From Flavobacteriaceae bacterium (GTDB lineage Bacteria > Bacteroidota > Bacteroidia > Flavobacteriales > Flavobacteriaceae), in NCBI GenBank assembly GCA_965224465.1, contig OZ245049.1, positions 3,000,001 through 3,032,000 on the forward strand: a DNA stretch of 32,000 nucleotides, read 5' to 3'. This document shows, piece by piece, positions 1,168 to 31,279 of this stretch. The notes beneath the pieces are model-generated. The model saw nothing but the letters and a program-made list of their open reading frames with translations, ran no database searches and was not told where the DNA came from. Position numbers and translations under genes: made by a program. Within the stretch, counting starts at the first letter, position 1. Each line of letters begins with the position of its first letter.

Positions 1168-1321
1168 TACCAACTAAAATCCGAAATAACCGATATAAAT
1201 AGTTTATGTTGCATTTTAGTTTTATTGAAAAACAGAACGATAGCTATCCTTCCATTTTTCGTCTAGCTAAAACAAAAAATAATTTCATTTCTAAACCGTC
1301 ACTTGGAAATGCATTTGGTAT
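1168..1321 (+). repeat. TACCAA-element copy A (154 bp): interspersed structured repeat with a 6-nt in-frame core deletion
   Basis: Aligns along its length with copies at 23361, 27106, 27268, 27435 and 31172 (taccaactaaaat...gatataaatagttta...ttgaaaaacagaacgatagctatcc...ctagctaaaacaaaaaataatttcatttctaaaccgtcacttggaaatgcatttggtat). Termini are TACCAA / TTGGTA. Confidence 0.85.
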
Positions 1322-1358
1322 ATAGGACATAAGGGAGCCAGAAATAAAGATTAAATAG

Positions 1359-1400
1359 AGAGCAATTGTAAGTAGTAATACGGCAATTGCTCTTTTTTTT
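1359..1400 (+). terminator. Rho-independent terminator of the M1 peptidase transcript
   Basis: AGAGCAATTG (1359-1368) pairs with CAATTGCTCT (1384-1393), a 10-bp stem, followed by a T7 run. Confidence 0.75.
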
Positions 1401-1484
1401 GAGGGCTAAAATCAAGACGATATCCCATTTATAAAGTTGCTCAATTTTCCGATTTGTGAGCTTTAAAACTATGCGTTTTTAACA

Positions 1485-1937
1485 CTAAGAAACCGCTAAT
1501 ATTTCCATCAGTTTCCCTTGGAACTGAATGCGATCTCCTTGTTTTTTACCCAACAGCAATTTTCCAATTGGAGCATGGGTGGAGATTCCAAAGTACAATT
1601 GCTTATTCAATGTTATTTGTCCAGTAGCAATGCCCATATAATAAGTGCCAATTTCTAAGTGAACCAAGCTTCCTAGGCAGACTAAATTTGACGTATTTTC
1701 TGGATTAATCTTGGAGAGTACCCGTTGCATGTGTTGTACGTTTTCTAATTGTTGCCCTGCTTTTTCCATTTCTAACTGAATCATGGCCCTCCCTGTTTCG
1801 TGTTTGTCTCCAGCGGAGCTTTTTGTTTCGCTATTCAAGTCGTTTTTGCAAGATTTAATGGTGTGTTCTATGGTTTCTAGACGTTCTTGTACGTATTGTT
1901 TGCAAAAGGCATGTAATTGCTGTTTTAGAAGTTGCAT
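1485..1937 (-). CDS. GreA/GreB C-terminal-domain-like protein (small coiled-coil plus FKBP-like fold)
   Basis: 150-aa ORF. The N-terminal half is a predicted helical region with KSSAGDKHETGRAM. The C-terminus, ISTHAPIGKLLLGKKQGDRIQF, resembles the GreA C-domain motif S-P-(I/L)-G-x-x-L-L-G-x-x-x-G-D. Confidence 0.6.
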   Translation of the reverse strand: MQLLKQQLHAFCKQYVQERLETIEHTIKSCKNDLNSETKSSAGDKHETGRAMIQLEMEKAGQQLENVQHMQRVLSKINPENTSNLVCLGSLVHLEIGTYYMGIATGQITLNKQLYFGISTHAPIGKLLLGKKQGDRIQFQGKLMEILAVS

Positions 1938-2014
1938 ATATAGAAATAATTAACAGGATTAAACGTCAAATATAAAGGAATAATACGGATCGGTATTTAA
2001 CTAATTTTTTAGAC

Positions 2015-2051
2015 AAAAAAATACTGTTCAAAATGTAATTTTGAACAGTAT
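2015..2051 (-). terminator. Rho-independent terminator downstream of asd
   Basis: ATACTGTTCAAAA (2021-2033) pairs with TTTTGAACAGTAT (2039-2051), a 13-bp perfect stem. A T-run follows on the minus strand (A-run 2015-2020 on +). Confidence 0.8.
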
Positions 2052-2073
2052 TTTAAAGTAGTATTATTGGGTT

Positions 2074-3063
2074 TTACACAAGGTTATTGGCAACTAAATA
2101 CTCTGCAATTTGCACTGCATTTGTAGCTGCACCTTTACGTAAATTATCTGCTACAATCCACATGTTTACGGTGTTTGGAAGCGATTCGTCTCTTCGGATT
2201 CTCCCTACAAAAACAGCATCTTTTCCATGTGCATAAATAGGCATAGGGTAGGTGTTGGTGTCTAGGTTGTCTTTTACAACAATACCAGAGGTTTCACTTA
2301 GTAATTTACGGAGTTCTGCCTCGTCAAATTCTTTTAAAAATTCAATATTCACACTCTCGCTATGTCCTCCTACAACAGGGATACGTACAGCTGTTGCTGT
2401 AATTGCGATGCTGCGATCATTTAGTATTTTTTGTGGTTCGCGTACTAATTTCATTTCTTCTTTGGTGTACCCATTTGCTTCGAATACATCACAATGTGGA
2501 ATTGCATTTTGATGAATAGGGTAATGATAGGCCATTTCTCCTTGTATACCTGCCATTTCATTTTCCAATTGTTGTACTGCTTTTACCCCTGTTCCTGTAA
2601 TGGACTGATAGGTAGAGACAATCAATCGTTTGATTCCATATTTTTTATGCAAGGGTGCTAATGTCAATACCAATTGAATGGTAGAACAGTTGGGATTTGC
2701 AATAATTTTATCTTCTTTGGTAAGTTCGTTCGCATTAATTTCTGGAACCACTAATTTTTTTGTTGGATCCATACGCCATGCCGATGAATTGTCTATAACT
2801 GTAGTTCCTGCATCAGCAAATTTAGGAGCCCATTCTAAGGAGGTGTCACCTCCTGCAGAAAAAATGGCGATATCTGCCTTCATATCCACAGCAGTTTGCA
2901 ATCCTACAACAGTATAATCCTTGTTTTTAAAACTTACTTTTTTTCCAACCGACCGTTCCGAGGCAACCGGAATCAATTCTGTAATTGGGAAATTACGTTC
3001 TGCTAATACCTGTAACATTACATTACCTACCATTCCTGTTGCGCCTACGACTGCTACTTTCAT
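2074..3063 (-). CDS. asd: Aspartate-semialdehyde dehydrogenase
   Basis: 329 aa. N-terminal Rossmann motif VAVVGATGMVG, active-site NPNCSTIQ, and family-like length and architecture. Confidence 0.92.
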   Translation of the reverse strand: MKVAVVGATGMVGNVMLQVLAERNFPITELIPVASERSVGKKVSFKNKDYTVVGLQTAVDMKADIAIFSAGGDTSLEWAPKFADAGTTVIDNSSAWRMDPTKKLVVPEINANELTKEDKIIANPNCSTIQLVLTLAPLHKKYGIKRLIVSTYQSITGTGVKAVQQLENEMAGIQGEMAYHYPIHQNAIPHCDVFEANGYTKEEMKLVREPQKILNDRSIAITATAVRIPVVGGHSESVNIEFLKEFDEAELRKLLSETSGIVVKDNLDTNTYPMPIYAHGKDAVFVGRIRRDESLPNTVNMWIVADNLRKGAATNAVQIAEYLVANNLV

Positions 3064-3219
3064 TTGTTCTTATTTAGAATTTTGATCCTACAAATGTTGT
3101 GAAAAAAAAGCAATTCGCCTAGAACAAGAGATTTAAAATTACAAAATTCTTTATTTTTGTTAAAAAACAAATAAATACGCTATCTATTATTATATAGCTG
3201 ATTATATGACAGAAATCAG

Positions 3220-3227
3220 TATTTTTG
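3220..3227 (+). promoter_or_regulatory. Candidate Bacteroidota sigma-A -7 box (TATTTTTG = TAnnTTTG)
   Basis: Exact TAnnTTTG match 15 nt upstream of the ATG at 3242. No clean -33 TTG was seen. Confidence 0.3.
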
Positions 3228-3241
3228 CAAAAAATTAATGA

Positions 3242-4495
3242 ATGACAACAACTGGAAGAATAGAATTAATGGCTCCTGCCGGAAACTTTGAATCCATGCA
3301 AGCTGCATTGGACAATGGTGCGGATTCCATTTATTTTGGAGTGGAGCAATTAAACATGCGGGCGAGAGCGTCAATTAATTTTACCTTAGATGATTTACAA
3401 GAAATCTCTGAGAGATGTAAAGCTAAAAAAGTACGAACATACCTTACCTTAAATACCATTATTTACGATCATGATTTAACCATCATCAGAACGTTGATTC
3501 AGAAAGCAATAGAGGCAGATATTACAGCTGTTATAGCCATGGATCAAGCCGTTATTTCGGTAGCTCGTGAATTGAAAATGGAGGTGCATATTTCTACGCA
3601 GATAAATATTACCAATATCGAAACAGTGAAGTTTTATGCCCTGTTTGCAGATACGATGGTAATGAGTAGAGAATTGAGTTTGCGTCAAGTAAAAAGCATC
3701 AGTGATCAGATTAAAAAACAACAAATCAAAGGCCCTTCTGGAAATTTGGTTGAGATTGAAATTTTTGGTCATGGAGCTTTGTGTATGGCGGTTTCTGGTA
3801 AATGTTACATGAGTTTACATTCTAGTAATTCTAGTGCAAACCGTGGAGCATGTAAACAAAATTGCCGTAAAAAATACACTGTTATTGACCAAGAAACTGG
3901 TTTTGAAATGGAGTTGGACAATGAGTATATTATGAGTCCAAAAGATTTATGTACCATTGATTTCTTAGACGAAATTGCCGATGCAGGAGTTAAAGTATTG
4001 AAAATTGAAGGTCGGGGTAGGGCGCCAGAATATGTTGCAAATGTGATCAAATGTTACCGCAACGCAATTGATGCCATTGAAGAAGGAACCTATAGTAAAG
4101 AGAAGGTGATTGACTGGATGAAAGATTTAGAAAAAGTGTACAATCGCGGATTTTGGAGTGGTTATTATTTAGGTCAGAAACTCGGTGAATGGAGCAAAGG
4201 TTCTGGATCTCATGCTACTCAAAAGAAAGTATATATAGGAAAAGGAATGCATTATTTCCCAAAAGTGAATATTGGTGAATTCAAAATAGAAGCTTTTGAT
4301 ATTTCTATTGGAGACACCATTTTAATTACGGGACCTACCACAGGAGCAAAAGAAATGAAAGTCAAAGAAATGTTTGTAAATGATGTTAAAGGAGAAAAAG
4401 CAAGCAAAGGAGATTCCTGTACGATTCCTTTAGAATTTAGAATTAGACCATCGGATAAATTATACAAAATTGTAGCCAATAAAGTAGAGGCCTAG
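3242..4495 (+). CDS. Peptidase U32 family protein
   Basis: 417 aa. N-terminal ELMAPAGN...AAL..GADSIYFG, central EIFGHGALCMAVSGKCYMS and Cys-rich CKQNCRK are typical of the U32 family. Confidence 0.8.
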   Translation: MTTTGRIELMAPAGNFESMQAALDNGADSIYFGVEQLNMRARASINFTLDDLQEISERCKAKKVRTYLTLNTIIYDHDLTIIRTLIQKAIEADITAVIAMDQAVISVARELKMEVHISTQINITNIETVKFYALFADTMVMSRELSLRQVKSISDQIKKQQIKGPSGNLVEIEIFGHGALCMAVSGKCYMSLHSSNSSANRGACKQNCRKKYTVIDQETGFEMELDNEYIMSPKDLCTIDFLDEIADAGVKVLKIEGRGRAPEYVANVIKCYRNAIDAIEEGTYSKEKVIDWMKDLEKVYNRGFWSGYYLGQKLGEWSKGSGSHATQKKVYIGKGMHYFPKVNIGEFKIEAFDISIGDTILITGPTTGAKEMKVKEMFVNDVKGEKASKGDSCTIPLEFRIRPSDKLYKIVANKVEA

Positions 4496-7186: not shown

Positions 7187-7193
7187 TTACACA

Positions 7194-15107: not shown

Positions 15108-16793
15108 ATGAGCGAAGAAAGAAAAACGCTGAATTTTATTGAGCAAATTATTGAAGAAGATTTGGCAAACGGACTGTCTAAGGATCGTCTACGTTTCCGG
15201 TTTCCACCTGAGCCAAATGGGTATTTACACATTGGACATGCGGCTTCTATTTGTTTAAACTTTGGTTTAGGATTGCGATACAATGCACCTGTAAATTTAC
15301 GTTTTGATGATACAAATCCAGCCAAAGAAGAGCAGGAATATGTAGATGCCATCAAAAAGGATATCGAATGGTTAGGGTTTAAGTGGGATCAGGAATTGTA
15401 TTCTTCCAACTATTTTGATCAATTGTACCAATGGGCACTTGAGTTTATAAAAGAGGGAAAAGCGTATATCGATAATCAATCTTCTGCTGAAATGGCGGCT
15501 CAAAAAGGAACACCTACCGAACCAGGTACAGATAGTCCTAACAGGGATCGTTCTGTAGCGGAAAACTTGGACTTGTTTGCGCAAATGAAAAATGGAGATT
15601 TTGAAGAAGGATCTCATGTATTGCGTGCAAAAATAGATATGAAACACAATAACATGCATATGCGTGATCCTATTATGTATCGTATTCTTAAAAAAGACCA
15701 TCATAGAACGGGCGATACTTGGTGTATATACCCAATGTATGATTGGACACATGGGCAATCGGATTACCTAGAACAAGTGTCACATTCTATCTGTACATTA
15801 GAATTTAAAAGCCATAGAGATTTATACGATTCGTATTTGGACCAAGTGTTTTCTGACAAAGATATACGCCCAAAACAACGTGAATTTGCTCGTCGTAATT
15901 TAAGTTATACGGTTATGAGTAAACGTAAATTATTACAATTGGTAGAAGAAGGTGTTGTAAATGGATGGGACGATCCCCGTATGCCTACTATTTCTGGATT
16001 GCGTAGACGTGGTTATACCGCAAATTCTATTCGTACTTTCAGTGAAACAGCAGGAATTTCTAAACGTGAGAATGTAACAGATGTAGCCTTATTAGAATTC
16101 TGTATCAAAGACGATTTAAATAAAACAGCACCTCGAGTAATGGGTGTGCTAGATCCTGTGAAAGTAGTAATTACCAACTACCCAGAAGGAGAGGAAGAGT
16201 GGTTGACAGCAGAAAACAACCCTGAAGATGAAGCTGCAGGATCAAGACAAGTTCCATTTTCTAGAGAAATCTATATCGAAAAAGAAGATTTTAGAGAAGC
16301 GGCTAATAAAAAGTTTTTCCGATTAAAATTAGGGAAAGAAGTACGTCTTAAAAATGCCTATATCATCAAAGCAGAAAGTTGTACCAAAGATGAAAACGGA
16401 GAAGTCATAGAAATACAGTGTACCTATGATCAAGAGAGTCGAAGTGGTAGTGGAAGTGAAGCTAGCAAGCGCAAAGTAAAAGGAACCTTACATTGGGTGT
16501 CTGTGCAGCACGCTGTTCCAGCTGAGGTGCGTATTTACGATCGTTTGTTTAATGATGAAGCACCAGACGGACATAAAGAGGTGGATTTTAAAGAATTCTT
16601 AAATCCAGACTCTTTACACATTATCAATGCTTTTGTAGAGCCTAGTCTTAAAGAAGCTAAAGACCTAGATCGCTTCCAATTCCAACGTTTGGGGTATTTT
16701 TGTGTAGACAAAGATAGCACCGCAGATAAAATTGTATTTAACCGTACCGTAGCTTTGCGTGATTCTTGGGCGAAGAAAGAAGATAAGAAATAG
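15108..16793 (+). CDS. glnS: Glutamine--tRNA ligase
   Basis: 561 aa. Class I HIGH motif (GYLHIGHA), KMSKS variant (VMSKRK) and GlnRS-type length and C-terminal beta-barrel region. Confidence 0.92.
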   Translation: MSEERKTLNFIEQIIEEDLANGLSKDRLRFRFPPEPNGYLHIGHAASICLNFGLGLRYNAPVNLRFDDTNPAKEEQEYVDAIKKDIEWLGFKWDQELYSSNYFDQLYQWALEFIKEGKAYIDNQSSAEMAAQKGTPTEPGTDSPNRDRSVAENLDLFAQMKNGDFEEGSHVLRAKIDMKHNNMHMRDPIMYRILKKDHHRTGDTWCIYPMYDWTHGQSDYLEQVSHSICTLEFKSHRDLYDSYLDQVFSDKDIRPKQREFARRNLSYTVMSKRKLLQLVEEGVVNGWDDPRMPTISGLRRRGYTANSIRTFSETAGISKRENVTDVALLEFCIKDDLNKTAPRVMGVLDPVKVVITNYPEGEEEWLTAENNPEDEAAGSRQVPFSREIYIEKEDFREAANKKFFRLKLGKEVRLKNAYIIKAESCTKDENGEVIEIQCTYDQESRSGSGSEASKRKVKGTLHWVSVQHAVPAEVRIYDRLFNDEAPDGHKEVDFKEFLNPDSLHIINAFVEPSLKEAKDLDRFQFQRLGYFCVDKDSTADKIVFNRTVALRDSWAKKEDKK

Positions 16794-16869
16794 CTTCCAA
16801 AAAAAAGTAGAGAGCGTAAAGAGAAGAGCGTATTGATTGTTCTTTTTTAAAAGTAAAATAGAGATTGAG

Positions 16870-16908
16870 AAACATCAAAGCCTTTTATGGGTTTTGATGT
16901 TTTTTTTT
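16870..16908 (+). terminator. Rho-independent terminator of glnS
   Basis: AAACATCAAA (16870-16879) pairs with TTTGATGTTT (16893-16902), followed by a T-run to 16908. Confidence 0.8.
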
Positions 16909-17018
16909 GCTTAACACTTCTGTTCTTTACAGTATGTTTTTTTTCTTAATGTGAGTTAAGAATACGAATTAATTTTATAAATTTACAGGAACAAACCATT
17001 ATTAACCTAGATCAATAC

Positions 17019-19430
17019 ATGATGAAACAATTCCTCTATTTTGCTCTTTTACTGTCTTTAGTAAAAGTGACAGCCCAAGAAAATGCACGTTACCAAAAAC
17101 CTCCAAAAGAAATTTTAGACCTCGTAGATATTGAGAAGGCACCAAGTGTACTCATAGATGATGCTAAAGAATTTATGGTGTTTTTGTACAGAGATGCGTA
17201 CAAATCTATTCAAGACCTTTCTAGAGAAGAACTCCGTTTAGGGGGCTTGCGCATAGACCCTAAAACCAATATAGGTAGTAGGATCACCTATTTTAAGACT
17301 CTAAAAATAAAAAACATTTCGAAAAAAGGAAATGCTATTTTATTGGTAAAAGGATTGCCGAGTGCTCCTAAATTAGCTAATTTTAGTTGGTCTCCAAAAC
17401 AGCAAAGAATTGCATTTACAAACACCACTTCAAAGGGTGTTGAACTGTGGGTAATGGAGTTGGCAACTGCTACAGCAACCAAACTGACAACAGCAATAGT
17501 AAATGCGAATATTGGGGATGTTATGAATTGGTTTAAAGATGGGAAATCACTGTTACTTAAAGTGGTTTCTGAAAATAAAAAACCATTGATCAATACAAAA
17601 ACTGCAGTTCCATTGGGACCTACGATTTCTGTAAATGAAGGGAAAAAAGCGCAGAATAGAACTTACCAAGATTTATTAAAAAACAAGAATGATGAGCATA
17701 ATTTTGAACAACTTGCCATATCAGAATTGTACAAGGTTTCGTTGGATGGTACAAAAGAAAAATGGTTAGGAACTGCCATCTATAAAAGTATTAACTTTTC
17801 ACCTGATGGTAAGTATGTCTTGGTGAATACCGTAGAAAAACCATATTCATATTTGGTACCTTATCATCGGTTTCCTTCTAAAACGAGCGTTTATTCTAAA
17901 GACGGAAGTTTGGTAGAAACCCTGCTAGAAGTTCCTTTAATTGAGGATTTACCAAAAGGATTTATGGCTGTTAGAACAGGGAAAAGAAATTTTACTTGGA
18001 GAAAAGATACAGCTGCAACTCTTGTTTATATCAGCGCTTTAGATGGAGGAGATCCAGCGACTAAAGTAGATTTTAGAGATGAGGTTTTAACATTGGATTT
18101 TCCTTATAAAGGAGAAGGAAAGCGCATTTTAAAAACAATCAATAGAATGTCTGATATTGAATGGGGAAATAATTCTTTGGCTATTGCACATGATTATTGG
18201 TGGAATACCAGAAACACAAAATCCTATGTATTCAATCCTTCTGATGCTTCACAAAAACCGGTCATTATTTCTGACAGAAATTATCAAGATACCTATAGTG
18301 ATCCGGGTAGATTTTTAAGCCAGAGAAATAGCATGGGAAGTAGGGTATTGACCTTGATAAAAGGGAATGCTTTTTTAATAGGAAGAGGCTATAGTGCAAA
18401 AGGACAATTTCCTTTTGTAGATCAGATGAATTTAAAAAGTCTAAAGACAAAAAGGATTTATCAATCAAAACTCACTGATAAGCTTGAAAACATACAACGT
18501 TACGATCCTAAGAAGAAGGAATTACTAGTTAAAATTGAATCTCCAAAAGCGTATCCAAATTATTATTTTAGAAAGCTTAGAAAAAATAAGTTAACACAAC
18601 TCACCTTTTTTGAAAATCCATTTAAGAGCATTCAAAATGTATCTAAAGAAGTGATACATTACAAACGTGAAGATGGACTGGAACTGTCAGGGACATTGTA
18701 TTTACCTGTTGGATATGATAAAAGTAAGAAGGAAAAAATGCCGATGATTATGTGGGCATACCCAACAGAATTTAAGGATAAATCTAGTGCTGGACAAAGC
18801 ACAAAAAACCCAAATAAATTCACCTATCCTTACTATGGTTCCATGATTTATTGGCTTACCAAAGGGTATGTAGTTTTAGATGGCGCTTCTTTTCCTATTG
18901 TTGGTGAGGGAGATGCAGAACCAAATGATACTTTTATCACTCAATTAGTTGCCAATGCTAAAGCAGCCATTGATGCTGTAGATAAACTTGGATATATAGA
19001 TAGAAATAGAGTTGCGGTAGGTGGACATAGCTATGGTGCATTTATGGTGGCAAATTTATTGTCACATTCGGACTTGTTTGCTGCTGGAATTGCGCGTAGT
19101 GGTGCATATAATAGAACCTTAACTCCTTTTGGATTTCAAAGTGAGGAGCGTAATTATTGGGAAGCACCAGAGGTGTATAATGCTATGTCTCCATTTATGA
19201 ATGCAGATAAAATGAAATATCCTTTGTTGTTAATTCACGGTGAGGCAGATAATAATTCGGGAACATATCCTATGCAAAGCGAGCGCTATTTTAATGCTCT
19301 AAAAGGTTTAGGGGCTACCGTGAGACTTGTTATTTTACCGAAAGAAAGTCATGGTTATAAGTCTAAAGAAAGCATACTTCACCTTCTTTGGGAACAAGAT
19401 CAATGGTTGGAAAAATACTTAAAAAAATAA
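17019..19430 (+). CDS. S9-family (prolyl oligopeptidase/dipeptidyl peptidase-like) serine peptidase, secreted
   Basis: 803 aa. Signal peptide, long beta-propeller-like N-terminal region, and a C-terminal alpha/beta hydrolase with GGHSYGAF (GxSxG), HGEADNN and ESHGY. Confidence 0.85.
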   Translation: MMKQFLYFALLLSLVKVTAQENARYQKPPKEILDLVDIEKAPSVLIDDAKEFMVFLYRDAYKSIQDLSREELRLGGLRIDPKTNIGSRITYFKTLKIKNISKKGNAILLVKGLPSAPKLANFSWSPKQQRIAFTNTTSKGVELWVMELATATATKLTTAIVNANIGDVMNWFKDGKSLLLKVVSENKKPLINTKTAVPLGPTISVNEGKKAQNRTYQDLLKNKNDEHNFEQLAISELYKVSLDGTKEKWLGTAIYKSINFSPDGKYVLVNTVEKPYSYLVPYHRFPSKTSVYSKDGSLVETLLEVPLIEDLPKGFMAVRTGKRNFTWRKDTAATLVYISALDGGDPATKVDFRDEVLTLDFPYKGEGKRILKTINRMSDIEWGNNSLAIAHDYWWNTRNTKSYVFNPSDASQKPVIISDRNYQDTYSDPGRFLSQRNSMGSRVLTLIKGNAFLIGRGYSAKGQFPFVDQMNLKSLKTKRIYQSKLTDKLENIQRYDPKKKELLVKIESPKAYPNYYFRKLRKNKLTQLTFFENPFKSIQNVSKEVIHYKREDGLELSGTLYLPVGYDKSKKEKMPMIMWAYPTEFKDKSSAGQSTKNPNKFTYPYYGSMIYWLTKGYVVLDGASFPIVGEGDAEPNDTFITQLVANAKAAIDAVDKLGYIDRNRVAVGGHSYGAFMVANLLSHSDLFAAGIARSGAYNRTLTPFGFQSEERNYWEAPEVYNAMSPFMNADKMKYPLLLIHGEADNNSGTYPMQSERYFNALKGLGATVRLVILPKESHGYKSKESILHLLWEQDQWLEKYLKK

Positions 19431-19440
19431 GAAAAGAACC

Positions 19441-19481
19441 GCTAATAAACAGCTTAACAAAGGGTGTTTATTAGCCGTTTT
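19441..19481 (+). terminator. Terminator hairpin after the S9 peptidase gene
   Basis: GCTAATAAACA (19441-19451) pairs with TGTTTATTAGC (19465-19475), an 11-bp stem, then CGTTTTT. Confidence 0.65.
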
Positions 19482-19526
19482 TACAGTACTGTATTTGTAC
19501 AGTATTGATTCTTAGATGTATATTTT

Positions 19527-19555
19527 AAAAGGAGAAATTTTTCTCCTTTTTTTGT
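19527..19555 (+). terminator. Second terminator-like hairpin
   Basis: AAAAGGAGAAATTTTTCTCCTTTTTTTG: a GGAGA/TCTCC stem with a T7 run. Confidence 0.5.
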
Positions 19556-19840
19556 TTCTATAAATTGTACCAACTTGATTTTTGGAATGATAGGATCATT
19601 CTATTGAATTTATTGTTGGAAGGTAACATGGGTTCGCATAGCCATTGTTACAGTACGCTGTTTTTTGAATAGAATGTGAAAAAGAAACAATATAATATGG
19701 TATTATAGGACTAAAAGGGTGATGAAAAGCATTAAAAGACCCTTTTTTTTGGCTAGAAACAAATCTATTGATAAATTTGGAGGATATATAACACTAGGTT
19801 GAATGTTTTTGTCGTTATTAAAAGTTAAAATAAATTTGTA

Positions 19841-20470
19841 ATGGAACTGTCTAAAGCACAAACAAGTAGAAATCATATTATAAAAACAGCATTTGTTTTG
19901 TTTTTAGAAAAAGGGTATAAACAAATTACTATAAATAACATTGTGAAAGACAGTGGTTTTTCTAAAGGTGCAATTTACCATCATTTTAAAAGTAAAGAAG
20001 CAATCTATTACGCGACATTAGAAACCTATTATTTTTGTTACTTAACAAAAGAACAATTACAACTGTCATCTGGTAATTTTAAAAGTGATATAAAAAAAAT
20101 GTATGCCTATGTTTGTAAGGTGTTTGGTCAAATTGAGAACCTGACATCTTCCAAGTTAAAATACCCGATAAGAAATTTTTTCAGCTTTCAATTGGAAAGT
20201 CAACTGAATCCAAAAGTGAGAGATCAAATCTATGAGACAGTTCTTTTTTACAGATTAGAATTGGTTAAAATTGTCTCCGCTGCAAAACAAAACAATCAAA
20301 TAAAACAGGACATTGATATTGAGGCAATTGCATTTCAAATTGCAGGAATTATAGAAGGGATTGCGATTAATAATGCGACCCTTGAGCTAGATGTCGAATC
20401 TAAATTGATGGTGCAATACGACATTGTTTTTAATAGTTTTTTTAAATTAATATGTACTGAACAGGAATAG
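19841..20470 (+). CDS. TetR/AcrR-family transcriptional regulator
   Basis: 209 aa. The N-terminal HTH TINNIVKDSGFSKGAIYHHFKSKEAIY is typical of the TetR family. Confidence 0.85.
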   Translation: MELSKAQTSRNHIIKTAFVLFLEKGYKQITINNIVKDSGFSKGAIYHHFKSKEAIYYATLETYYFCYLTKEQLQLSSGNFKSDIKKMYAYVCKVFGQIENLTSSKLKYPIRNFFSFQLESQLNPKVRDQIYETVLFYRLELVKIVSAAKQNNQIKQDIDIEAIAFQIAGIIEGIAINNATLELDVESKLMVQYDIVFNSFFKLICTEQE

Positions 20471-23360: not shown

Positions 23361-23520
23361 ATATCAATTAAATCTAAAATGACTGATATAAATAGTTTAT
23401 TATACGTTCTAGCGTGGTTGAAAAACAGAACGATAGCTAAGGCTATTCTTAGATTTTTTACCTAGCTAAAACATAAAATATTTCCATTTCTAAATCTTTA
23501 CTGGGAAATGTATTTGGTAT
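23361..23520 (+). repeat. TACCAA-element copy B (160 bp, most diverged full-length copy)
   Basis: atatcaattaaatctaaaatgactgatataaatagtttattatacgttctagcgtggttgaaaaacagaacgatagctaaggctatt...cctagctaaaacataaaatatttccatttctaaatctttactgggaaatgtatttggtat. Collinear with the 27.1-27.6 kb copies. Confidence 0.85.
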
Positions 23521-23865
23521 TTGATGATTTTTTGTTTCTAATTCAAAACCATTCAGCCTTGATTTCTATCCTTAGTATGTTGACAACGTACTAAATCTAA
23601 CTATTAAAAATGTTAATAGTTAGATCTTTCCAAAATATGAATAAGGTTAATTTCAAGCAATAAAAAACGGAGTGTTCTACAGTTAAATCATAGTAAACCG
23701 ACCAGACGTTTTGTTGCAATGTAGGTTTTTTTATCGACATAACACATTAACTGTATGTAATCTAACCTTTTTTAAAGGAGATGTGATGCCGTAAATTAAC
23801 TGTGTAAATTATAAATGAGACTTAGAAGAACAAGGTCAAAGTAGTTGTTTTTTTATTCTTAAATA

Positions 23866-25598
23866 GGGCTTGCTGATTTTATAAGCGATTAACTAAACTT
23901 CAGATTAGATATATATCTATTTTCATGATAATAACCACTTCTATTAAAAAAACAGAAGAACTTATTTGATTCATTTTTTGAACAAATACTATTTTTATTC
24001 CTTTTTTAAAAAAGGCATAAAAAATAGCATATAGATCTGCTATTTTTAATAAAGTTACTAGATTCATTACAAAGAAAATTGCACCAATCCAGCTTTGTGA
24101 GGTGTCGTTTGTTTTGGCTTTTATATTGCTTAGTCCGTATCCATTTTTAGCTTGCCCAAATTTTCCTTCGATTAGATTTCTTTGGTTTCGCTCTTTCTTT
24201 AGTTTTCGTCTCTGATACGCATTGAGCTCTTGTTTTGGTGGACGCCCTAAAGGTTTTCCTACAATACGAATCTCTCTTTCTTTAAGCCACTTCCTGTTCT
24301 TTCTATTCAGATAAATACGATCTGCCAATAACAATTCTGGATAATTACCAAAGGTAGTTTTGTAGGTTTCTATCTGGAGTTCTAAGTCTATGGATTCATT
24401 AAAATTATCCCAACTGATGTGTTCTACACGACTCATTCCGTCTACTTCGCTTCCGCTTATTTTTGCGCCAAACTCTGTTCTTGCATTGTCTTTTCCTCTT
24501 GCTATGGGACGTACGTAAGGCTGATAGATATTAACAACTCTGTCTTTTACGCTATGTACTTTTTGATCATACATGAATTGCTGTTGCTCATAAAGAAGTT
24601 GTACAACCCAGTATATTTTCTGATCTCGTTTAGAAATTGGAAACCTAAATGGATAAGCATCTTTTAAATCGGGAAATACTCCTACTGATTGTCCTTGTTT
24701 TCTTTGAGCTTCGATCTGATCTAAAAGTGATTCGATATAACTGATATTACGTTTTAAATAACCTAACTGTTTTCGAATAAATTTACGAATTACTTTTTGC
24801 GACTTTCTTCTGTTTTTTGAAAAGTTTAAGTATTCTGTCCTAGCTATTCTACGGTAATCACGTGGCTTTTTATCCAAACCAGCTTCTTTGTATAATAAAT
24901 CAATAATCCGCTCACTCTCTTTTCTTGCTCCATTTAACAATCCTGCATCAGTAGGAAATGCTATTTTCTGATTCGCTACGGTGGCATCAATTTTTAGTGT
25001 GCCTTTGTTTTGAGAAGTATCATTCTTATTTTTACTAATGTTCTTCTTTTTATCAGGTTTTAATTCATCTGCTCTTTCTATAACAAGTGCATTCCATGCT
25101 TCAAAATTACTTGCACCCATTCGCTTACGAATATCAACAAAAACTGTAGGATGGAAGGGTGGTTTTGTTTGGAAATTTCTCAAACCACAAAAATATTGAA
25201 GATAGATGTTTTCACTAATCATAGCAACAGTTCCCCTGTCATCTAAATTTAATTTATGTTTTACAATTAGTGCACCAATAACCATACGAACATCTATACT
25301 CTCTCTACCAGAGCTAGAATTAAGCTCTTTTGAATATACAGATGCTAAAGCATCCCAAGGGATCACTTTAGCTAATTTTACCCAACGATTTTCTTTTGAT
25401 AATTCCTGATCAAATGGATGAGAGAATCCTAATAAAGTTAACTGATTTGAAGGCGTATATTTTACCATAAGTGCACAAGTTTATTACCTAAAGATACGAA
25501 AACATACGCACTTATCAAAAAAAATAAAGCACAAAATACAAGTTAATATTCTGATAATCAAATATGTAAGTTGTGTTTAGTTGAAAATCAGCAAACCC
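23866..25598 (-). mobile_element. Insertion sequence, IS5/IS1182-like, apparently intact (~1.73 kb)
   Basis: Imperfect terminal inverted repeats: GGGCTTGCTGATTTT[ATAAGCGAT]TAACTAAAC (23866-23898) versus the reverse complement of 25575-25598, GGGTTTGCTGATTTTCAACTAAAC. A flanking direct repeat TAAATA(GGG) sits at 23860-23865(-68) and 25599-25604(-07). One transposase ORF. Confidence 0.8.
23900..25468 (-). CDS. DDE transposase (IS5/IS1182 superfamily, InsH-like N-terminal domain)
   Basis: 522 aa. The N-terminal ...ENRWVKLAKVIPWD... region resembles the InsH N-terminal domain. Candidate catalytic residues are in FPTDAGLL, LLADRIYLN and NLIEGKFGQAKNGYGL. Confidence 0.85.
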   Translation of the reverse strand: MVKYTPSNQLTLLGFSHPFDQELSKENRWVKLAKVIPWDALASVYSKELNSSSGRESIDVRMVIGALIVKHKLNLDDRGTVAMISENIYLQYFCGLRNFQTKPPFHPTVFVDIRKRMGASNFEAWNALVIERADELKPDKKKNISKNKNDTSQNKGTLKIDATVANQKIAFPTDAGLLNGARKESERIIDLLYKEAGLDKKPRDYRRIARTEYLNFSKNRRKSQKVIRKFIRKQLGYLKRNISYIESLLDQIEAQRKQGQSVGVFPDLKDAYPFRFPISKRDQKIYWVVQLLYEQQQFMYDQKVHSVKDRVVNIYQPYVRPIARGKDNARTEFGAKISGSEVDGMSRVEHISWDNFNESIDLELQIETYKTTFGNYPELLLADRIYLNRKNRKWLKEREIRIVGKPLGRPPKQELNAYQRRKLKKERNQRNLIEGKFGQAKNGYGLSNIKAKTNDTSQSWIGAIFFVMNLVTLLKIADLYAIFYAFFKKGIKIVFVQKMNQISSSVFLIEVVIIMKIDIYLI

Positions 25599-25616
25599 TA
25601 AATAGGGTGATAAAAA

Positions 25617-25718
25617 GGTGAAATAAAACGATGGCTAAGGCTCTCCTTAAATTTTTTTCCTTGCTAAAATAAAAAATATATCCATTTCTAAACTGTCACC
25701 TGAAAATGTATTTGGTAT
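25617..25718 (+). repeat. TACCAA-element copy C (5'-truncated/diverged, ~102 bp)
   Basis: ggtgaaataaaacgatggctaaggctctcc...ccttgctaaaataaaaaatatatccatttctaaactgtcacctgaaaatgtatttggtat aligns with the 3' two-thirds of the consensus. It begins 19 nt after the IS right end. Confidence 0.7.
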
Positions 25719-25962
25719 TAATCCCAACAAATCTAATATAGTATGATGCTGTTTTTAAGGAAGTAAAATAACGCCTATTAGATCCTTGACTTTACCTGAT
25801 AGTAGAACATCTAAAAGACAGGTAATCAAGTTGTATTTAGAGATGTTTACTTAAATGAAACACTTGCTTTATCTAGGTAAAACTACAGAAAACTTTAATT
25901 CCATCTGTTATTTGGAATTGTTTCTGGTAGTCTAAATTATGGAGTGTGTTTGTAAAAGAATC

Positions 25963-27015
25963 TCAATCCTTAAAAAACAGTTCTATTTCGTTCCTAGAAC
26001 TGATCAATAGCTTTTTATAAATAGCATTGATATGGGTTTTAACTGTACTTATGCTAATAAATAAATGCGCTGCTATTTCTTTGTTTGATAAATTATCGTG
26101 CATAAGAAGAAATACTTTTTGCTCTTGATTGGACAACACCTCTTTATATTGAATTCGACGCTGTTTAGGCGTTATTTTTGTGAATAAAAATACATTGAGA
26201 AAAATAGACAACAATAAAAGGAACAAGCTACTATACATTCCTATTTTATAGCTGCTGTTTTTTTTGATGAGTAATGGATATTGATCGTTGACTAAGTCTG
26301 CTTTAAACTGAGAAGCGTAGCTCGCTGTTGGATAGCGCTTTTCTATCCTATGGAGTAATTTGGTGTAGTAGTCAGAATTTTGTAAATCCTTTAAATAGAA
26401 TTTTCTACTAAAAGATGTTGAATTGGCATATAAATTATAAGTATATAATTCTACCAAAGGAGCTTTAAACGAGCGACCAAAATGCTTGATTTTAATAAAA
26501 TAATTTTTAAATATGATGTTCCGTTGAGCCTCGTTTTTTGCTTCTTGTAAAACCCCTAATAATTGTTCTTGAATAGAATCAATTTTTTGAATCGCTGTGT
26601 TTTCAGACCTTGAAAATTGGACATCGCAAAACATTTGATCCAATCCGTTTAAGGGAAAATAAATATGGTCTGTATTATTTGCTATAAAAATAATGGAGGT
26701 GCTTTCTTCGCATTGTTTCAGAAGGTGCAATGCATCCGAAACATTGCCTTGACATTTATCGACATAAATCTTATAAAACCTACTTTCAGAAGATAGAAAA
26801 TCACCAGAAAACTGAAAACGTCCTTCGGCGTCTATTTTAGACTCTTGAAGTATGTACTCCGTCTGAAATACATGGCTTTTTTTATAGTCTTCTATACACA
26901 TTAAATAACAAGTAGCTTCAGTAAATTCTTCTGTAACAAGCCCGTTAAATTTGAACTGACCATACGATGAAACCGTACAGAATAAAATAAGGACTAATAC
27001 GCAGCGATGTAACAT
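25963..27015 (-). CDS. Membrane-anchored LuxR/GerE-family transcriptional regulator (exported N-domain, one TM, cytoplasmic HTH)
   Basis: C-terminal SNQEQKVFLLMHDNLSNKEIAAHLFISISTVKTHINAIYKKL is a LuxR-type HTH. TM segment IGMYSSLFLLLLSIFLNVFLF. The start is placed at the internal Met (MLHRCVLVLILFCTVSSYG, signal-like), because the longer ORF runs into repeat copy D1. Confidence 0.75.
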   Translation of the reverse strand: MLHRCVLVLILFCTVSSYGQFKFNGLVTEEFTEATCYLMCIEDYKKSHVFQTEYILQESKIDAEGRFQFSGDFLSSESRFYKIYVDKCQGNVSDALHLLKQCEESTSIIFIANNTDHIYFPLNGLDQMFCDVQFSRSENTAIQKIDSIQEQLLGVLQEAKNEAQRNIIFKNYFIKIKHFGRSFKAPLVELYTYNLYANSTSFSRKFYLKDLQNSDYYTKLLHRIEKRYPTASYASQFKADLVNDQYPLLIKKNSSYKIGMYSSLFLLLLSIFLNVFLFTKITPKQRRIQYKEVLSNQEQKVFLLMHDNLSNKEIAAHLFISISTVKTHINAIYKKLLISSRNEIELFFKD

Positions 27016-27061
27016 AACAATTATTTGAATACGGAATATAGTAAAAAAAGGATAGCTCCAT

Positions 27062-27101
27062 AAAAAAGCACCCTTTAGTTTTACACGTAATAGTAAAGGG
27101 G
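27062..27101 (-). terminator. Candidate terminator hairpin between the repeat array and the LuxR gene
   Basis: CCCTTTA (27071-27077) pairs with TAAAGGG (27094-27100). On the minus strand the stem is followed by TGCTTTTTT. Confidence 0.45.
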
Positions 27102-27105
27102 ACCT

Positions 27106-27266
27106 ATACCAATTATATTCCAAAATGACAGATATAAATAGTTTATTTTTTGTTCTAGCGTTGTTGAAAAATAGAACGATAGCTACGGCTATCCATCCAT
27201 TTTCCGCCTAGCTAGAACAAAAAATAATTCCATTTCTAAACTGTCACTTGGAGATGTATTTGGTAT
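27106..27266 (+). repeat. TACCAA-element copy D1 (161 bp), first unit of the tandem array
   Basis: ataccaattatattccaaaatgacagatataaatag...gatgtatttggtat. Contains a 17-bp perfect long-range stem (27143-27159 with 27211-27227) enclosing the GATAGC-tacg-GCTATC hairpin (27178-27193). Confidence 0.9.
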
Positions 27267-27267
27267 G

Positions 27268-27433
27268 ATACCAATTAAATTACATTCCAAAATGACAGAT
27301 ATAAATAGTTTATTTTAGGTTCTAGTGTTGTTGAAAAATAGAACGAGAGCTACGGCTATCCATCCATTTTTCGCCTAGCTAGAACAAAAAATAATTCCAT
27401 TTCTAAACTGTCACTTGGAGATGTATTTGGTAT
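27268..27433 (+). repeat. TACCAA-element copy D2 (166 bp)
   Basis: Near-identical to D1 (a handful of substitutions and one 5-nt indel). Separated from D1 by a single G. Confidence 0.9.
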
Positions 27434-27434
27434 G

Positions 27435-27590
27435 ATACCAATTAAATTACATTCCAAAATGACAGATATAAATAGTTTATTTTACGTTCTAGTGTTGTTG
27501 AAAAACAGAACGATAGCTACGGCTATCCATCCATTTTTCGCCTAGCTATAATTCCATTTCTAAACCGTCACTTGGAGATGTATTTGGTAT
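27435..27590 (+). repeat. TACCAA-element copy D3 (156 bp, 10-nt deletion of GAACAAAAAA)
   Basis: Same consensus, but cctagctagaacaaaaaataattcc is replaced by cctagctataattcc. Confidence 0.9.
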
Positions 27591-27628
27591 GATCCGATAC
27601 TGTTCTAATTATTTTTGAAGTTGCATGT

Positions 27629-28030
27629 TTATTGCTGCGCAACAACTGGAGCCAAGACCATCCCTTTTATTCGAATGTTTTTAGTTTTTTCGCGGGCATT
27701 TGATACAATCGAAAATGTTTTTGAGAATCCACCCAAACGATTTGTTGCGTAGTTTACACGTATCACACCGCTTTCACCAGGCATAATAGGCTTACTTGGC
27801 TTTTGGGCTACAGAACAGCCACAACTACTTTTAATGCTGGAAATAAAAATCGGAGACTTTCCTATATTTGTAAAATTGAACGTACGATACCCATTGTCAT
27901 GTTGTGAAACTTGGCCATAATCAACAATTTCTTTTTCGAATTTAAAGATGCCTTCTTTTAGAGTGTCTTTTTCTTGAGCGATCAATAAAGATCCTATAAA
28001 TAACATTAAAATACAGCTTACATTTTTCAT
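27629..28030 (-). CDS. DUF1573-like secreted protein
   Basis: 133 aa. Signal peptide. FKFEKEIVDYGQV...FNFTNIGKSPIFISSIKSSCGCSV...PGESGVIRVNY matches my recollection of the DUF1573 pattern (conserved CGC). Confidence 0.7.
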   Translation of the reverse strand: MKNVSCILMLFIGSLLIAQEKDTLKEGIFKFEKEIVDYGQVSQHDNGYRTFNFTNIGKSPIFISSIKSSCGCSVAQKPSKPIMPGESGVIRVNYATNRLGGFSKTFSIVSNAREKTKNIRIKGMVLAPVVAQQ

Positions 28031-28106
28031 TTTTATTGTTTTAAAATTAATAGGTTACAAACATCAAGAAAACTGTGTAAAAAATAAAGTTTAAGGAGAT
28101 GGATTA

Positions 28107-28120: not shown

Positions 28121-28386
28121 GGTTGAAATTGTATTTTAGGAGAAATCTATGGAATAAAAACACATAAACTACCATTTTTTTACTGCTTAAATTCGGGTAA
28201 TTTTTTTAAAAAAAAATAATTGAAACAGTTGAAAACACTACTTCCCTCCCTAAGAAACAACTTCTTTTTAGGCGCAACGTGCTTATAGTAAACAATGTAA
28301 TAATAACTACTTTACAAAACGAACGGTTGGTTTTTTAAATATAAAAGTATATATTGTGTTCTTTATCAACCTTATTCTAAAAAAGA

Positions 28387-29607
28387 ATGATTCGTAAAAT
28401 ACGGCAATACTTTATTTTTTTAACACTACTTATTATAGGTGGAGTTGCTCTTTTTTTTACAAGTTTGTCTGATAATACCGCTGGTATAATTGATTCTTCA
28501 ACTAGTAATTCGAAGGATGAATACCAGAAGATAAGATTAAAAACTACCTGTCCTCCTGGATTTAAGAAAAACGAGAATAACGAATGTGTTACCGTAAACT
28601 TATACCAACAATATCACATAAAAAACGAAGCAGGTGTTGGAGGCTTACAATCTGGATTGTCTGATAATAGAGATGGTTTTTCTCCGCAACAAATAGATTT
28701 AGGACGTTATTTGTTTTTTGATCCTATTTTATCTGGAGATGGAACTATTTCATGTGCTACGTGTCACGATCCAAACCAAGGTTTTAGTGATGGCTTAGGT
28801 GCCAGTATAGGAATAGGTGATCAAAAATTAAAACGTGGAGCTCCAACGATTTGGAATGTAGGATTTTTAAAAAAATTATTTTGGGACGGTCGGTCAAACA
28901 ATCTAGAAGATCAAGCTATGGGGCCTTTATTTGCAGCAAATGAAATGGGAAATACTCCGAGTAAATTAGTAGCAACCTTAAATAGTATAAAAACATATCG
29001 CGTGTTATTTGCAGAGGCATTTCCTAAAAGAGCAACTACAACTGCAATTTCTTTAGATGAAATTCTCGCTGCTATTACTGCTTTTGAAGCTTCTCTAATT
29101 TCCTTGAATAGTAGGTATGACCAATATGCCCATGGCTATCACGAGGCTTTAACCAGTAAAGAGAAAGAGGGGATGAATGTATTTAGGTCTTTTGTAGCTA
29201 GATGTGCAGAATGCCATACGCCTCCTTTATTTACCAATCAACAAATTGCTGTTATCGGGACTCCAGAACCTACAGGGTTTTCCTTTGATCCTGGAGCTGA
29301 AATCCCTTCGAAGGATAAAACATTAAGAGGTGGGTTTAAAGTTCCATCCCTGAGAAATATCGAAAAAACAGCGCCATATATGCATTCTGGGAAGTTTCAA
29401 ACATTAAGAGAAACCGTACAATTTTATACAGATGGTAGAGGACATGCTGTTCCTAAGGATGCGCAACTGCTTATACATTGGCATATTTGGGAACCAAAAT
29501 TAACGGACTATGAACTTGATAGACTTGTAGATTTTTTAAGAACACTTACCGATGAGAGTTTTATGCCAGAGATCCCCAAAATTCTCCCGTCAGGAAAACC
29601 AATATAG
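28387..29607 (+). CDS. Di-haem cytochrome c peroxidase / MauG-family enzyme, membrane-anchored
   Basis: Two CxxCH motifs (CATCHD, CAECHT). Family motifs GRYLFFDPILSGDGTISCATCH, FKVPSLRNI and APYMHSGKFQTLRETVQFY. N-terminal TM helix. Confidence 0.85.
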   Translation: MIRKIRQYFIFLTLLIIGGVALFFTSLSDNTAGIIDSSTSNSKDEYQKIRLKTTCPPGFKKNENNECVTVNLYQQYHIKNEAGVGGLQSGLSDNRDGFSPQQIDLGRYLFFDPILSGDGTISCATCHDPNQGFSDGLGASIGIGDQKLKRGAPTIWNVGFLKKLFWDGRSNNLEDQAMGPLFAANEMGNTPSKLVATLNSIKTYRVLFAEAFPKRATTTAISLDEILAAITAFEASLISLNSRYDQYAHGYHEALTSKEKEGMNVFRSFVARCAECHTPPLFTNQQIAVIGTPEPTGFSFDPGAEIPSKDKTLRGGFKVPSLRNIEKTAPYMHSGKFQTLRETVQFYTDGRGHAVPKDAQLLIHWHIWEPKLTDYELDRLVDFLRTLTDESFMPEIPKILPSGKPI

Positions 29608-29665
29608 CCTTAAAGAAACGTTTCCTAAAACATTTTATAAATACGAATTAAAGAAAAAGAAATCA

Positions 29666-31168
29666 ATGAAAAAGACAGCTAGATTATTTAAGTTTTTAAT
29701 GGCAATATTTTTACTTGTCATTGGTGTACTAATTGGAAAAACATTTTTTAATGCTACAGGAGAGGAAGCAATTCCAATGCCTAGTTCCATGCGTTTTAAA
29801 AGTGTAATGCTCACCGATAGTACGGCAATAGAGCAAGAAGAGTTTAAGGGGGAAATTATAAATGTCAAAGATGGTCAATCCATTCAAAAAGCCGTAGAGA
29901 AAGCATCTCCAGGGGATATCATAAGAGTTTTTCCTGGGACTTATCATGAAACAGTGTATATAGACAAAGACAGGATTAGCTTACAAGGAATTATTCAAAA
30001 TGGTTCATGGCCAACATTGGATGGACAAAAAAAGCTCAACGATGCTATTCTGTATTCAGGAAACCGCATACGTATAGAGAATTTTAAAATCATGCAATAC
30101 AAAGGGAATGCTATTATGGGGCAAGCTGGTAATAATTTTGTTATCCGTAACAATTGGGTGATTGATTCTGGTGTGTATGGTATTTTTCCTCAGTACGGTA
30201 AAAATGGTTTGATAGCACACAATGTGTTGTCTGGAATAGAAGATGCTGCAATTTATGTGGGTATGTGTGACAATATAGATGTACTTCACAATGAGGTTTT
30301 TGAGAGTGTAGCAGGGATTGAAATTGAAAATTCTCGCCATTGTTTGGTCGAAAATAATTATGTACATAATAATACAGGAGGAATTTTAGTTTTTGTGACT
30401 CCTGGTTTGCCTATAAAAACAACGTTTGATGTGATTGTTAGAAATAATTTTGTTGTGAACAACAATCATAAAAATTTTGGAGCTCCTGGTTCTACGGTAG
30501 CCTCAATTCCGCCTGGAACAGGTATTTTAATTATGGCTGCAGATGATGTAATAGTTGAAAATAATATTATTTCAAATAATGATACAGGTGGAATTATAAT
30601 AACAGATTTAAAAAATGGAGACCCAAAAGCGAACGATCCTAATGTAGAAGGAAACCCAGACCGTGTAATTATATTAGACAATATAATGTATAATAACGGA
30701 AATAAACCAGTAGGAGAATTAAAAGCATTAATGCTCACCAATTTAAAAACAAAATCTCCAGATATTTTTGCTTATGGTGGTGGTGTTGGCTCCACTATTT
30801 TAGATAAAAATAAGTACCGTACTTTTGGTCTTGGCCCTTTCGGAATCCCAACAATTACGGATACAAAAGACATTCCAACAATGCGACTGCCAAATCTTGT
30901 ACCTCCAAGATCTGTTTCTAAAGAACAATTGGGGGAAATAACGTATTTTGGTATTTGTGCTGGATGCCATGCTATGGGCTCAAGATTGATAGGAGTCGAT
31001 ACAAAAATAATACAAGCCATTTATGCAGGAAACCCTCAAGGCATTGTAGATTATATAAACGCACCTAAAAACGCAAGAGAAGATTATCCAGAAATGCCTC
31101 CTCAAAATTATTTAACGGAAGAAGCAAAAATAGCGGTGGCAGAATACCTGCTGGCCTTAAAAGACTAA
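29666..31168 (+). CDS. Parallel beta-helix (NosD/PbH1-like) repeat protein fused to a C-terminal mono-haem cytochrome c domain
   Basis: The start is set at MKKTARLFKFLMAIFLLVIG (signal/anchor). There are reiterated N-x-(I/V)-x-x-N...G-(I/G) beta-helix turns (NNFVIRNNWVIDSGVYGIF, VENNYVHNNTGGILVF, VENNIISNNDTGGIII). The C-terminus has CAGCHA plus a downstream Met. Confidence 0.75.
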   Translation: MKKTARLFKFLMAIFLLVIGVLIGKTFFNATGEEAIPMPSSMRFKSVMLTDSTAIEQEEFKGEIINVKDGQSIQKAVEKASPGDIIRVFPGTYHETVYIDKDRISLQGIIQNGSWPTLDGQKKLNDAILYSGNRIRIENFKIMQYKGNAIMGQAGNNFVIRNNWVIDSGVYGIFPQYGKNGLIAHNVLSGIEDAAIYVGMCDNIDVLHNEVFESVAGIEIENSRHCLVENNYVHNNTGGILVFVTPGLPIKTTFDVIVRNNFVVNNNHKNFGAPGSTVASIPPGTGILIMAADDVIVENNIISNNDTGGIIITDLKNGDPKANDPNVEGNPDRVIILDNIMYNNGNKPVGELKALMLTNLKTKSPDIFAYGGGVGSTILDKNKYRTFGLGPFGIPTITDTKDIPTMRLPNLVPPRSVSKEQLGEITYFGICAGCHAMGSRLIGVDTKIIQAIYAGNPQGIVDYINAPKNAREDYPEMPPQNYLTEEAKIAVAEYLLALKD

Positions 31169-31171
31169 ATT

Positions 31172-31279
31172 ATACCAACTAAAACCCAAAATGACAGATA
31201 TAAATAGGTTGTTTTAGGTTCTAGCGTTGTTGAAAACTAATTCCATTTTTAAACCGTCACTTGGAAATGTATTTAGAAT
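31172..31279 (+). repeat. TACCAA-element copy E (108 bp, core-deleted variant)
   Basis: ataccaactaaaacccaaaatgacagatataaataggttgttttaggttctagcgttgttgaaaac|taattccatttttaaaccgtcacttggaaatgtatttagaat. It lacks the ~55-nt GATAGC hairpin/CTAGCTAGAAC core and starts 4 nt after the upstream stop codon. Confidence 0.8.

Follow-up and report, generated by a model that had tools for sequence, protein, structure and literature searches.

A dispersed 160-bp hairpin repeat, probably a MITE-like element, in intergenic DNA of marine Flavobacteriaceae

How does a palindromic sequence of about 160 bp come to stand seven times, always on the same strand, within 32 kb of one bacterial genome? The stretch in question, here called the window, comprises 32,000 nucleotides from a Flavobacteriaceae bacterium (assembly GCA_965224465.1, contig OZ245049.1, positions 3,000,001 to 3,032,000), and a first-pass annotation, made from the letters alone, had noticed the repeat in it and proposed either a mobile element or a structured module outside the described families. 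We find that the family exists, that it holds nonorthologous sites in different genomes while the orthologous sites are empty, and that it bears neither a coding nor a promoter signature. On balance, we favor the view that it is a new family of elements resembling miniature inverted-repeat transposable elements (MITEs), that is, a nonautonomous mobile element that is noncoding and lineage restricted. We hold this view because of the inverted-repeat ends, the small size, the missing coding signature, the dispersed, nonorthologous copies, the empty orthologous sites, and a star-like tree combined with decaying hairpins; transposition as the way in which the copies spread, and the type of transposase behind it, are what we infer from this pattern.

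Searching the window by nhmmer with a profile derived from the copies returned all seven of them on the plus strand, where the first-pass annotation had placed them, at 92 to 175 bits each. Scores on the reverse strand were 48 bits or less, so that the orientation of the copies is well defined despite their palindromic shape. The copies, together with an eighth, degenerate remnant, are as follows.

Copy A, 1168 to 1321, plus strand: full length minus 6 nt in the center; nhmmer 142.8 bits, covariance model 152 bits.
Copy B, 23361 to 23520, plus strand: full length; nhmmer 148 bits, covariance model 149 bits.
Copy C, 25617 to 25718, plus strand: 3' two-thirds only, model positions 62 to 164; nhmmer 92 bits.
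Degenerate 3'-arm relic, 25868 to 25929, plus strand: weak match over model positions 100 to 162, nhmmer --max, E value 0.22.
Copies D1 to D3, 27106 to 27593, plus strand: head-to-tail array; nhmmer 157 to 175 bits, also found by Tandem Repeats Finder.
Copy E, 31172 to 31279, plus strand: short form, nhmmer model positions 2 to 67 and 117 to 163; covariance model 77 bits.

The extents as drawn by nhmmer are 1167 to 1321 for A, 23361 to 23520 for B, 25617 to 25719 for C (model positions 62 to 164 only), 27105 to 27267, 27274 to 27434, and 27441 to 27591 for D1, D2, and D3, and 31171 to 31236 plus 31233 to 31279 for E, which lacks the core. A direct repeat search of the window also turned up the repeat families. 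With the 37-nt 3' arm as the query, six matches at three or fewer mismatches were obtained, against 0.00 expected from 100 shuffles, and seven copies far exceed chance expectation. The covariance model, built from nine full-length copies and run over 200 kb (the window plus 168 kb of related DNA), added nothing to the copies already known. All copies are intergenic, as had been claimed, and this includes D1, into which a mechanically called minus-strand open reading frame (ORF; 25963 to 27123) appeared to extend: the call is 36 codons too long, from a TTG within D1, and alignment with a 351-amino-acid ortholog puts the true start of this LuxR-type gene at an ATG at 27015, which leaves D1 between genes.

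In folding, the whole unit forms one imperfect hairpin of ∼75 bp, with arms that pair across its full length; D1 reaches −57.7 kcal/mol as plus-strand RNA and −63.6 kcal/mol as minus-strand RNA (z about −10). The units are 154 to 167 bp long, and the terminal inverted repeats read ATACCAA...TTGGTAT. The termini had been given as TACCAA...TTGGTA, always bordered by TA. They are indeed inverted, but they are not invariant, given that the left end of B is TATCAA and that E terminates in TTTAGAAT, and the TA border fails on the left of A (TG) and on the right of D3 (TG) and B (TT). The internal deletions are as clean as first described: 6 nt in A (GATA[GCTACG]GCTATC, with the identical deletion in L002; L numbers denote loci in other assemblies), 10 nt in D3, and a core between A-runs in E, measured at 53 nt, with both arms kept. 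In the alignment, these deletions fall at microhomologies. D1 has the strongest hairpin, at −64 kcal/mol, against about −18 to −33 kcal/mol in A, B, and E, and in 11 of 11 copies the minus-strand RNA folds more strongly than the plus-strand RNA. As a separate observation, both strands show a T-run after the central 6-bp hairpin GATAGC-TACG-GCTATC of D1 (27178 to 27193) and D3 (27512 to 27527), which a simple scan flags as terminator-like both ways; the hairpin is probably too weak for termination and could cause pausing.

Is the unit a gene? A conserved ATGAC opens a plus-strand ORF of 28 amino acids (MTDINSLF...) that is intact in 5 of 11 copies and extended to 47 amino acids in L008, which speaks for a small gene, be it one for a type I toxin-like peptide or an independent small RNA with its own promoter. 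Yet the same frame is lost or truncated in another five of the 11 copies (A, D2, E, L001, and L002), its variable columns are spread evenly over the codon positions (9/12/11), the Bacteroidetes promoter consensus TTG-N17-21-TAnnTTTG occurs in no copy on either strand, and no terminator stands at the unit end; a small gene is effectively excluded on these counts. Searched at gathering scores, Rfam 15 has no match anywhere in the window. Flavo-1 (RF01705), which the first-pass annotation had singled out for comparison, is likewise a noncoding motif of Flavobacteria, sometimes present in multiple copies, but its match to the window repeat is not significant: in permissive mode it scores 13.5 bits against a gathering score of 42, with an E value of 8.5, on the opposite strand and over part of the model. 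The Rfam matches with low E values were generic microRNA-hairpin models far under their own thresholds and were rejected. Further, the window holds no tRNA or tmRNA genes, and in the literature on Flavobacteriaceae MITEs or palindromic repeats we found no description of such an element, in line with the initial suspicion that the repeat, whether mobile or structured, lies outside the described families.

The family is not confined to the window. A pattern scan of the GTDB species representatives found four genuine copies in three Flavobacteriaceae metagenome-assembled genomes (MAGs), two in NORP167 and one each in NORP150 and NORP129, as well as two chance matches inside genes, and a scan of JGI metagenomes added one further copy, L008. 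These outside copies are 79 to 91% identical to the window copies and stand at unrelated intergenic sites, with flanks that share no similarity; the ORFs beside them in those assemblies are genuine genes. Viral contigs and plasmids contained no copies, only chance matches of 18 to 29 nt. In terms of independent insertion sites, we count five in the window and five in other assemblies. The identity matrix is star-like: L006, from NORP129, shares 86 to 89% with A, B, and D, whereas A and B share 81% with each other, and cross-genome values go up to 91%, which means that a copy is not most closely related to the others in its genome. Such a tree would fit descent from a conserved master rather than local duplication. 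As far as can be seen, the family is limited to a small marine and subseafloor clade of Flavobacteriaceae. Beside the full copies, NORP129 has a solo, diverged 3' arm (38/46 nt; 5877 to 5921 of L009, L010, and L011) in a divergent intergenic region about 80 nt upstream of a GreA-like gene; no other fragment turned up in DNA chosen independently of the pattern search.

What stands at the corresponding places in relatives? Syntenic contigs of the same clade were reached through homologues of two window proteins (∼72 to 82% amino acid identity), and presence and absence were compared between species only. In relatives with conserved gene order, the element is missing from sites A, B/C, D, and E. 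The order TetR, TonB receptor, LuxR type, DUF1573, cytochrome c peroxidase, NosD-like, and GH114 is the same in the window and in L012/L013, and yet the LuxR-type and DUF1573 genes stand 614 nt apart in the window (27015 to 27629) compared to 108 nt in L012/L013, an excess of about 506 nt, or roughly 3 × 167. The NosD-like/GH114 gap (site E) and the TonB/LuxR-type gap (B/C) are without the element in the same two contigs, and site A is empty in L010, L017, and L018 (NORP129, JAESRX01, and a JGI population), where both aligned flanks reach up to the insertion point and read ...CCCTTAAGTCCTA and AAAA(A/C)CTAAA. By this comparison, gain of the element (or, as the less parsimonious alternative, its loss on four occasions) took place independently of its neighbors.

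The same data settle the scenario that the first-pass annotation had named as the one speaking against it, a local segmental or tandem duplication without mobility, to which a mere chance palindrome may be added. Local events did take place: D1 to D3 are clearly a tandem amplification, with a period of 167, 3.0 copies, and 93% matches in Tandem Repeats Finder and with TGA joining the units, and a 5-nt duplication, AATTA, common to D2 and D3 only and missing from all other copies, identifies the array as a local amplification and not three insertions. Copies B and C and the relic likewise occupy one intergenic region. This account does not explain the 79 to 91% identical copies at unrelated loci in four other assemblies or a chance expectation of zero, and a purely local duplication is excluded by the empty orthologous sites; as an explanation of the family, it is thus effectively excluded.

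If the MITE-like reading is right, a unit of ∼160 bp would insert independently into AT-rich intergenic DNA near gene 3' ends and terminators, would do so in several related marine Flavobacteriaceae, and would be moved in trans by a transposase whose gene lies elsewhere in the genome. After insertion, point mutations would weaken the hairpin in the course of neutral decay, slippage at short internal repeats would remove 6, 10, or 53 nt, unequal recombination would have triplicated one copy to give D1 to D3, and an IS1182-like element would have destroyed half of copy C. Three of the five features that define a generic MITE are seen here, namely, a size below ∼300 bp without coding capacity, terminal inverted repeats, and dispersed copies with presence/absence at orthologous sites.

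Several results weigh against this reading. No target-site duplication of 2 to 9 nt rises above the mismatched-flank controls (for 9 nt, 6.12 compared to 5.62), and a TA at the ends, which as an insertion-site duplication would mark a MITE derived from IS630/Tc1-mariner (the Correia, RUP, and Nezha type), is indistinguishable from the inverted repeat itself: most copies can be read as TA-CCAA...TTGG-TA, but the TA belongs equally well to the repeat, and one step further out the dinucleotides do not agree. Copy A is flanked by an abutting 7/9 repeat (ACAGGACTT/ATAGGACAT), and the intergenic DNA of the relatives is too diverged for an exact reading of the empty site. Neither in the window, as had been noted from the start, nor in ∼227 kb of related loci is there a transposase with matching ends. 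Copy density is low as well, with no full copy in ∼168 kb of related DNA taken without regard to the pattern and just the four genuine matches (plus the two by chance) across the GTDB representative genomes. Finally, a classical cut-and-paste MITE does not predict the orientation bias to which we now turn.

None of the copies lies between divergent genes. The right-hand neighbor is always a minus-strand gene (that of B lies past the insertion sequence and copy C), and the co-directional flanks are all minus/minus. The repeat had been described as lying in plus orientation whatever the direction of its neighbors; the shared strand is borne out, but the independence from the neighbors does not quite hold. 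Five independent same-strand events in the window alone correspond to a P value of about 0.06. Where the flanking genes are co-directional, the element is antisense to them in six of six contexts (window B/C, window D, L002, L004, L006, and L008; two-sided P of about 0.03), and A and E, which lie between convergent genes, are uninformative on this point. Orientation is therefore better described as always antisense to co-directional neighbors. GC skew in the window follows the direction of the genes rather than marking the replication strand, so that a replication-linked bias and a transcription-linked bias are not separable here.

Distances to the neighboring genes are short. L008 follows a stop codon at 0 nt and fills the gap up to the next start, 38 nt away; E, which has convergent genes on its two sides, begins 4 nt past the NosD-like stop codon; and A begins 12 nt past the stop of an M1-peptidase gene and ends 35 nt ahead of a strong hairpin at 1357 to 1400. 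This hairpin, preceded by A8 and followed by U8 (−18.7 kcal/mol, z of −3.9), lies between the convergent M1-peptidase and GreA-like genes, stands at the same place in every relative examined, and probably terminates transcription in both directions. Copy B lies upstream of, and antisense to, a minus-strand TonB-dependent receptor gene (supported by Pfam) that starts 74 nt away, and the relic is 34 nt from the LuxR-type stop codon. The D array spans from the DUF1573 stop (27629) to a hairpin plus U6 at 27060 to 27105, which is weak in the window (z of −0.05) and has a −20 kcal/mol terminator as its counterpart at the orthologous position in L012. L001 has a stop codon on one side and, on the other, a hairpin plus U6 that is a clear terminator, and L002 lies just past a strong terminator. 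Going by these positions, transcription is very probable for the L001 copy and probable for the D array.

Such contexts bring up a different reading, in which the repeat is a REP/ERIC-like element with a role in RNA: transcripts would include it in their 3' untranslated regions or between cistrons, its long minus-strand hairpin would be cleaved by RNase III or would hold up 3' exonucleases, and its orientation would be under selection. The six of six co-directional contexts in which the reverse complement is sense to the genes speak for it, as do the D array and L001 between stop codon and hairpin plus U-run, the way in which L008 fills its stop-to-start gap, and the greater stability of the minus-strand fold in 11 of 11 copies, although this last asymmetry may stem from a single ancestor. 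On the other side, A and E follow stops on the plus strand, where it is the opposite orientation that would be transcribed, L002 comes only after a strong terminator, and hairpin stability is not kept (−64 to about −18 kcal/mol). Double changes occur at 3 of 50 pairs compared to 2.2 in shuffles, a value reached by 193 of 500 shuffles, and the covariation score is 0.101 compared to 0.089 (reached by 37 of 500), in a test with nine sequences and correspondingly low power. The C-G to T-A double change in the stem of copy A, to which the first-pass annotation had drawn attention, is present but is one of these three and does not exceed the shuffles; at the same pair, B and L001 show the half-step, a C-A mismatch. 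One-sided stem changes, counted in the alignment, have no G-U bias on either strand (16 compared to 12 cells). Selection on RNA structure, for which covariation had been the suggested check, is not supported, and the decay of the hairpin together with shuffle-level covariation is as expected for neutral decay after insertion. We consider an RNA-level element unlikely, and we put forward with similar reserve the proposal that the element is orientation constrained, always antisense between co-directional genes and never in promoter regions. If it were so, the long hairpin may act strand-specifically in transcripts, in the processing or stabilization of 3' untranslated or intercistronic regions, and to our knowledge such transcript-acting hairpin elements are essentially undescribed in the phylum. 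Alternatively, it would point to strand-specific mobilization, through single-stranded DNA or coupled to transcription, despite MITE-like inverted repeats and with no known transposase.

A single-stranded route has known counterparts in the palindromes moved by Y1/HUH enzymes (PATEs derived from IS200/IS605, and REPs with their RAYTs), where orientation would be tied to the replication strand and not to transcription. The single orientation of all window copies over 30 kb, a unit dominated by hairpins, and the lack of a detectable target-site duplication, which this mechanism predicts, are in keeping with it. The long terminal inverted repeats have no equivalent at IS200/IS605 ends, and the left flanks have only A/T richness in common, without a conserved tetra- or pentanucleotide, for which reasons an IS200/IS605 PATE was rejected; a REP/BIME with a RAYT was rejected for the unit length of ∼160 nt, REPs being 20 to 40 nt long, and for the lack of a Y1_Tnp domain, and of any Y1 transposase or RAYT gene, among the 20 largest ORFs of the window. 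We regard mobilization of this kind as improbable.

Compared with known repeats, the MITE-like family is closest in form to the Correia elements and then also to ERIC and RUP elements; these likenesses are ones of form and imply no homology. Correia elements (CREE/NEMIS, of Neisseria) are noncoding hairpin units of ∼150 bp with terminal inverted repeats, intergenic near genes and often co-transcribed. They have ends that read TA and a short form of ∼105 nt that lacks ∼50 internal nt, which resembles copy E with its 108 nt and 53-nt core deletion. We know of no cognate transposase for them. A genome with Correia elements has hundreds of them, equipped with promoter and IHF sites, whereas our repeat belongs to another phylum, has no promoter consensus, and has a low copy number in relatives. 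ERIC/IRU and RUP/BOX, of enterobacteria and Streptococcus pneumoniae, are similarly imperfect palindromes (∼100 to 130 bp) in transcribed intergenic regions, with size variants due to indels, but both of their orientations occur; RUP, in addition, has a candidate IS630-family partner and a TA duplication, neither of which could be made out for the window family. REP/BIME repeats share the location as extragenic palindromes at gene 3' ends, sometimes in tandem clusters, and differ in having units of 20 to 40 nt in alternating clusters, compared to ∼160 nt head to tail here. Last, integron attC sites (e.g., the Vibrio VCRs) are alike as imperfect palindromes of ∼60 to 140 bp just past stop codons, in one orientation relative to the preceding gene. 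They were rejected: the ends have no R''/R' core sites (RYYYAAC/GTTRRRY) and the copies abut without cassettes, the flanking genes are ancestral and syntenic in relatives without the repeat, and a domain scan of the 20 largest window ORFs showed no integrase.

An insertion sequence in the window lies outside the repeat family and bears on copy C.

IS1182-like insertion sequence, 23850 to 25616, minus strand: Pfam DUF772 and DDE_Tnp_1_2; context only.

Its DDE-type transposase has 522 amino acids (23900 to 25468, minus strand), and its imperfect inverted repeats of ∼30 bp (23848 to 23880 and 25584 to 25616; TTATTCTTAAATAGGGCTTGCTGATTTT and AAAATCAGCAAACCCTAAATAGGGTGATAA) are unrelated to the ends of the repeat family, as had been stated. 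Copy C starts exactly where the right inverted repeat ends and is cut off by the insertion sequence; on the far (left) side, no significant similarity to the missing 5' part of C was found. The insertion sequence lies in the TonB/LuxR intergenic region, the ortholog of which is only 388 nt long in L012.

Some further features of the compared contigs lie apart from the repeat family. A 155-nt length polymorphism between L011 and L009/L010 was discarded, as it is only a scaffold gap of Ns inside a different repeat; in the same spacer of NORP129, between the GreA-like and M1-peptidase genes (L010, 6455 to 6640), we observed a GC-richer motif, AAGAAACAAGACGCCTAGATGCA(A/G)GATACAGGACT..., in about three imperfect copies, uncalled by Tandem Repeats Finder and coinciding with the N gap of L011. 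A saccharopine-dehydrogenase gene stands beside the GreA-like gene in NORP129 and in the JGI population (L009 to L011 and L018 to L020) and is missing from the window. Window positions 15108 to 20470 are rearranged relative to 14000 to 21266 of L012, a NORP167-like contig: in the window, the genes for GlnRS and an S9 peptidase lie upstream of TetR/TonB on the plus strand, and in L012 they lie beyond GH114 on the minus strand, with Rce1-like and TPR-HTH_18 genes between.

This is an ordinary kind of element, not a new kind of system, and it does not overturn current understanding. Its interest lies in the host group, as MITE- or REP-like repeats have barely been described in Flavobacteriaceae. 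A defined family with a hidden Markov model and a covariance model helps annotation, in that it explains over-extended ORFs, such as the one at 25963 to 27123, and breaks in MAG assemblies, and the family can serve to mark a marine and subseafloor clade about which little is known. Moreover, it offers a small test case for two broader questions, namely, whether the orientation of hairpins in transcripts is under selection and which transposase moves them.

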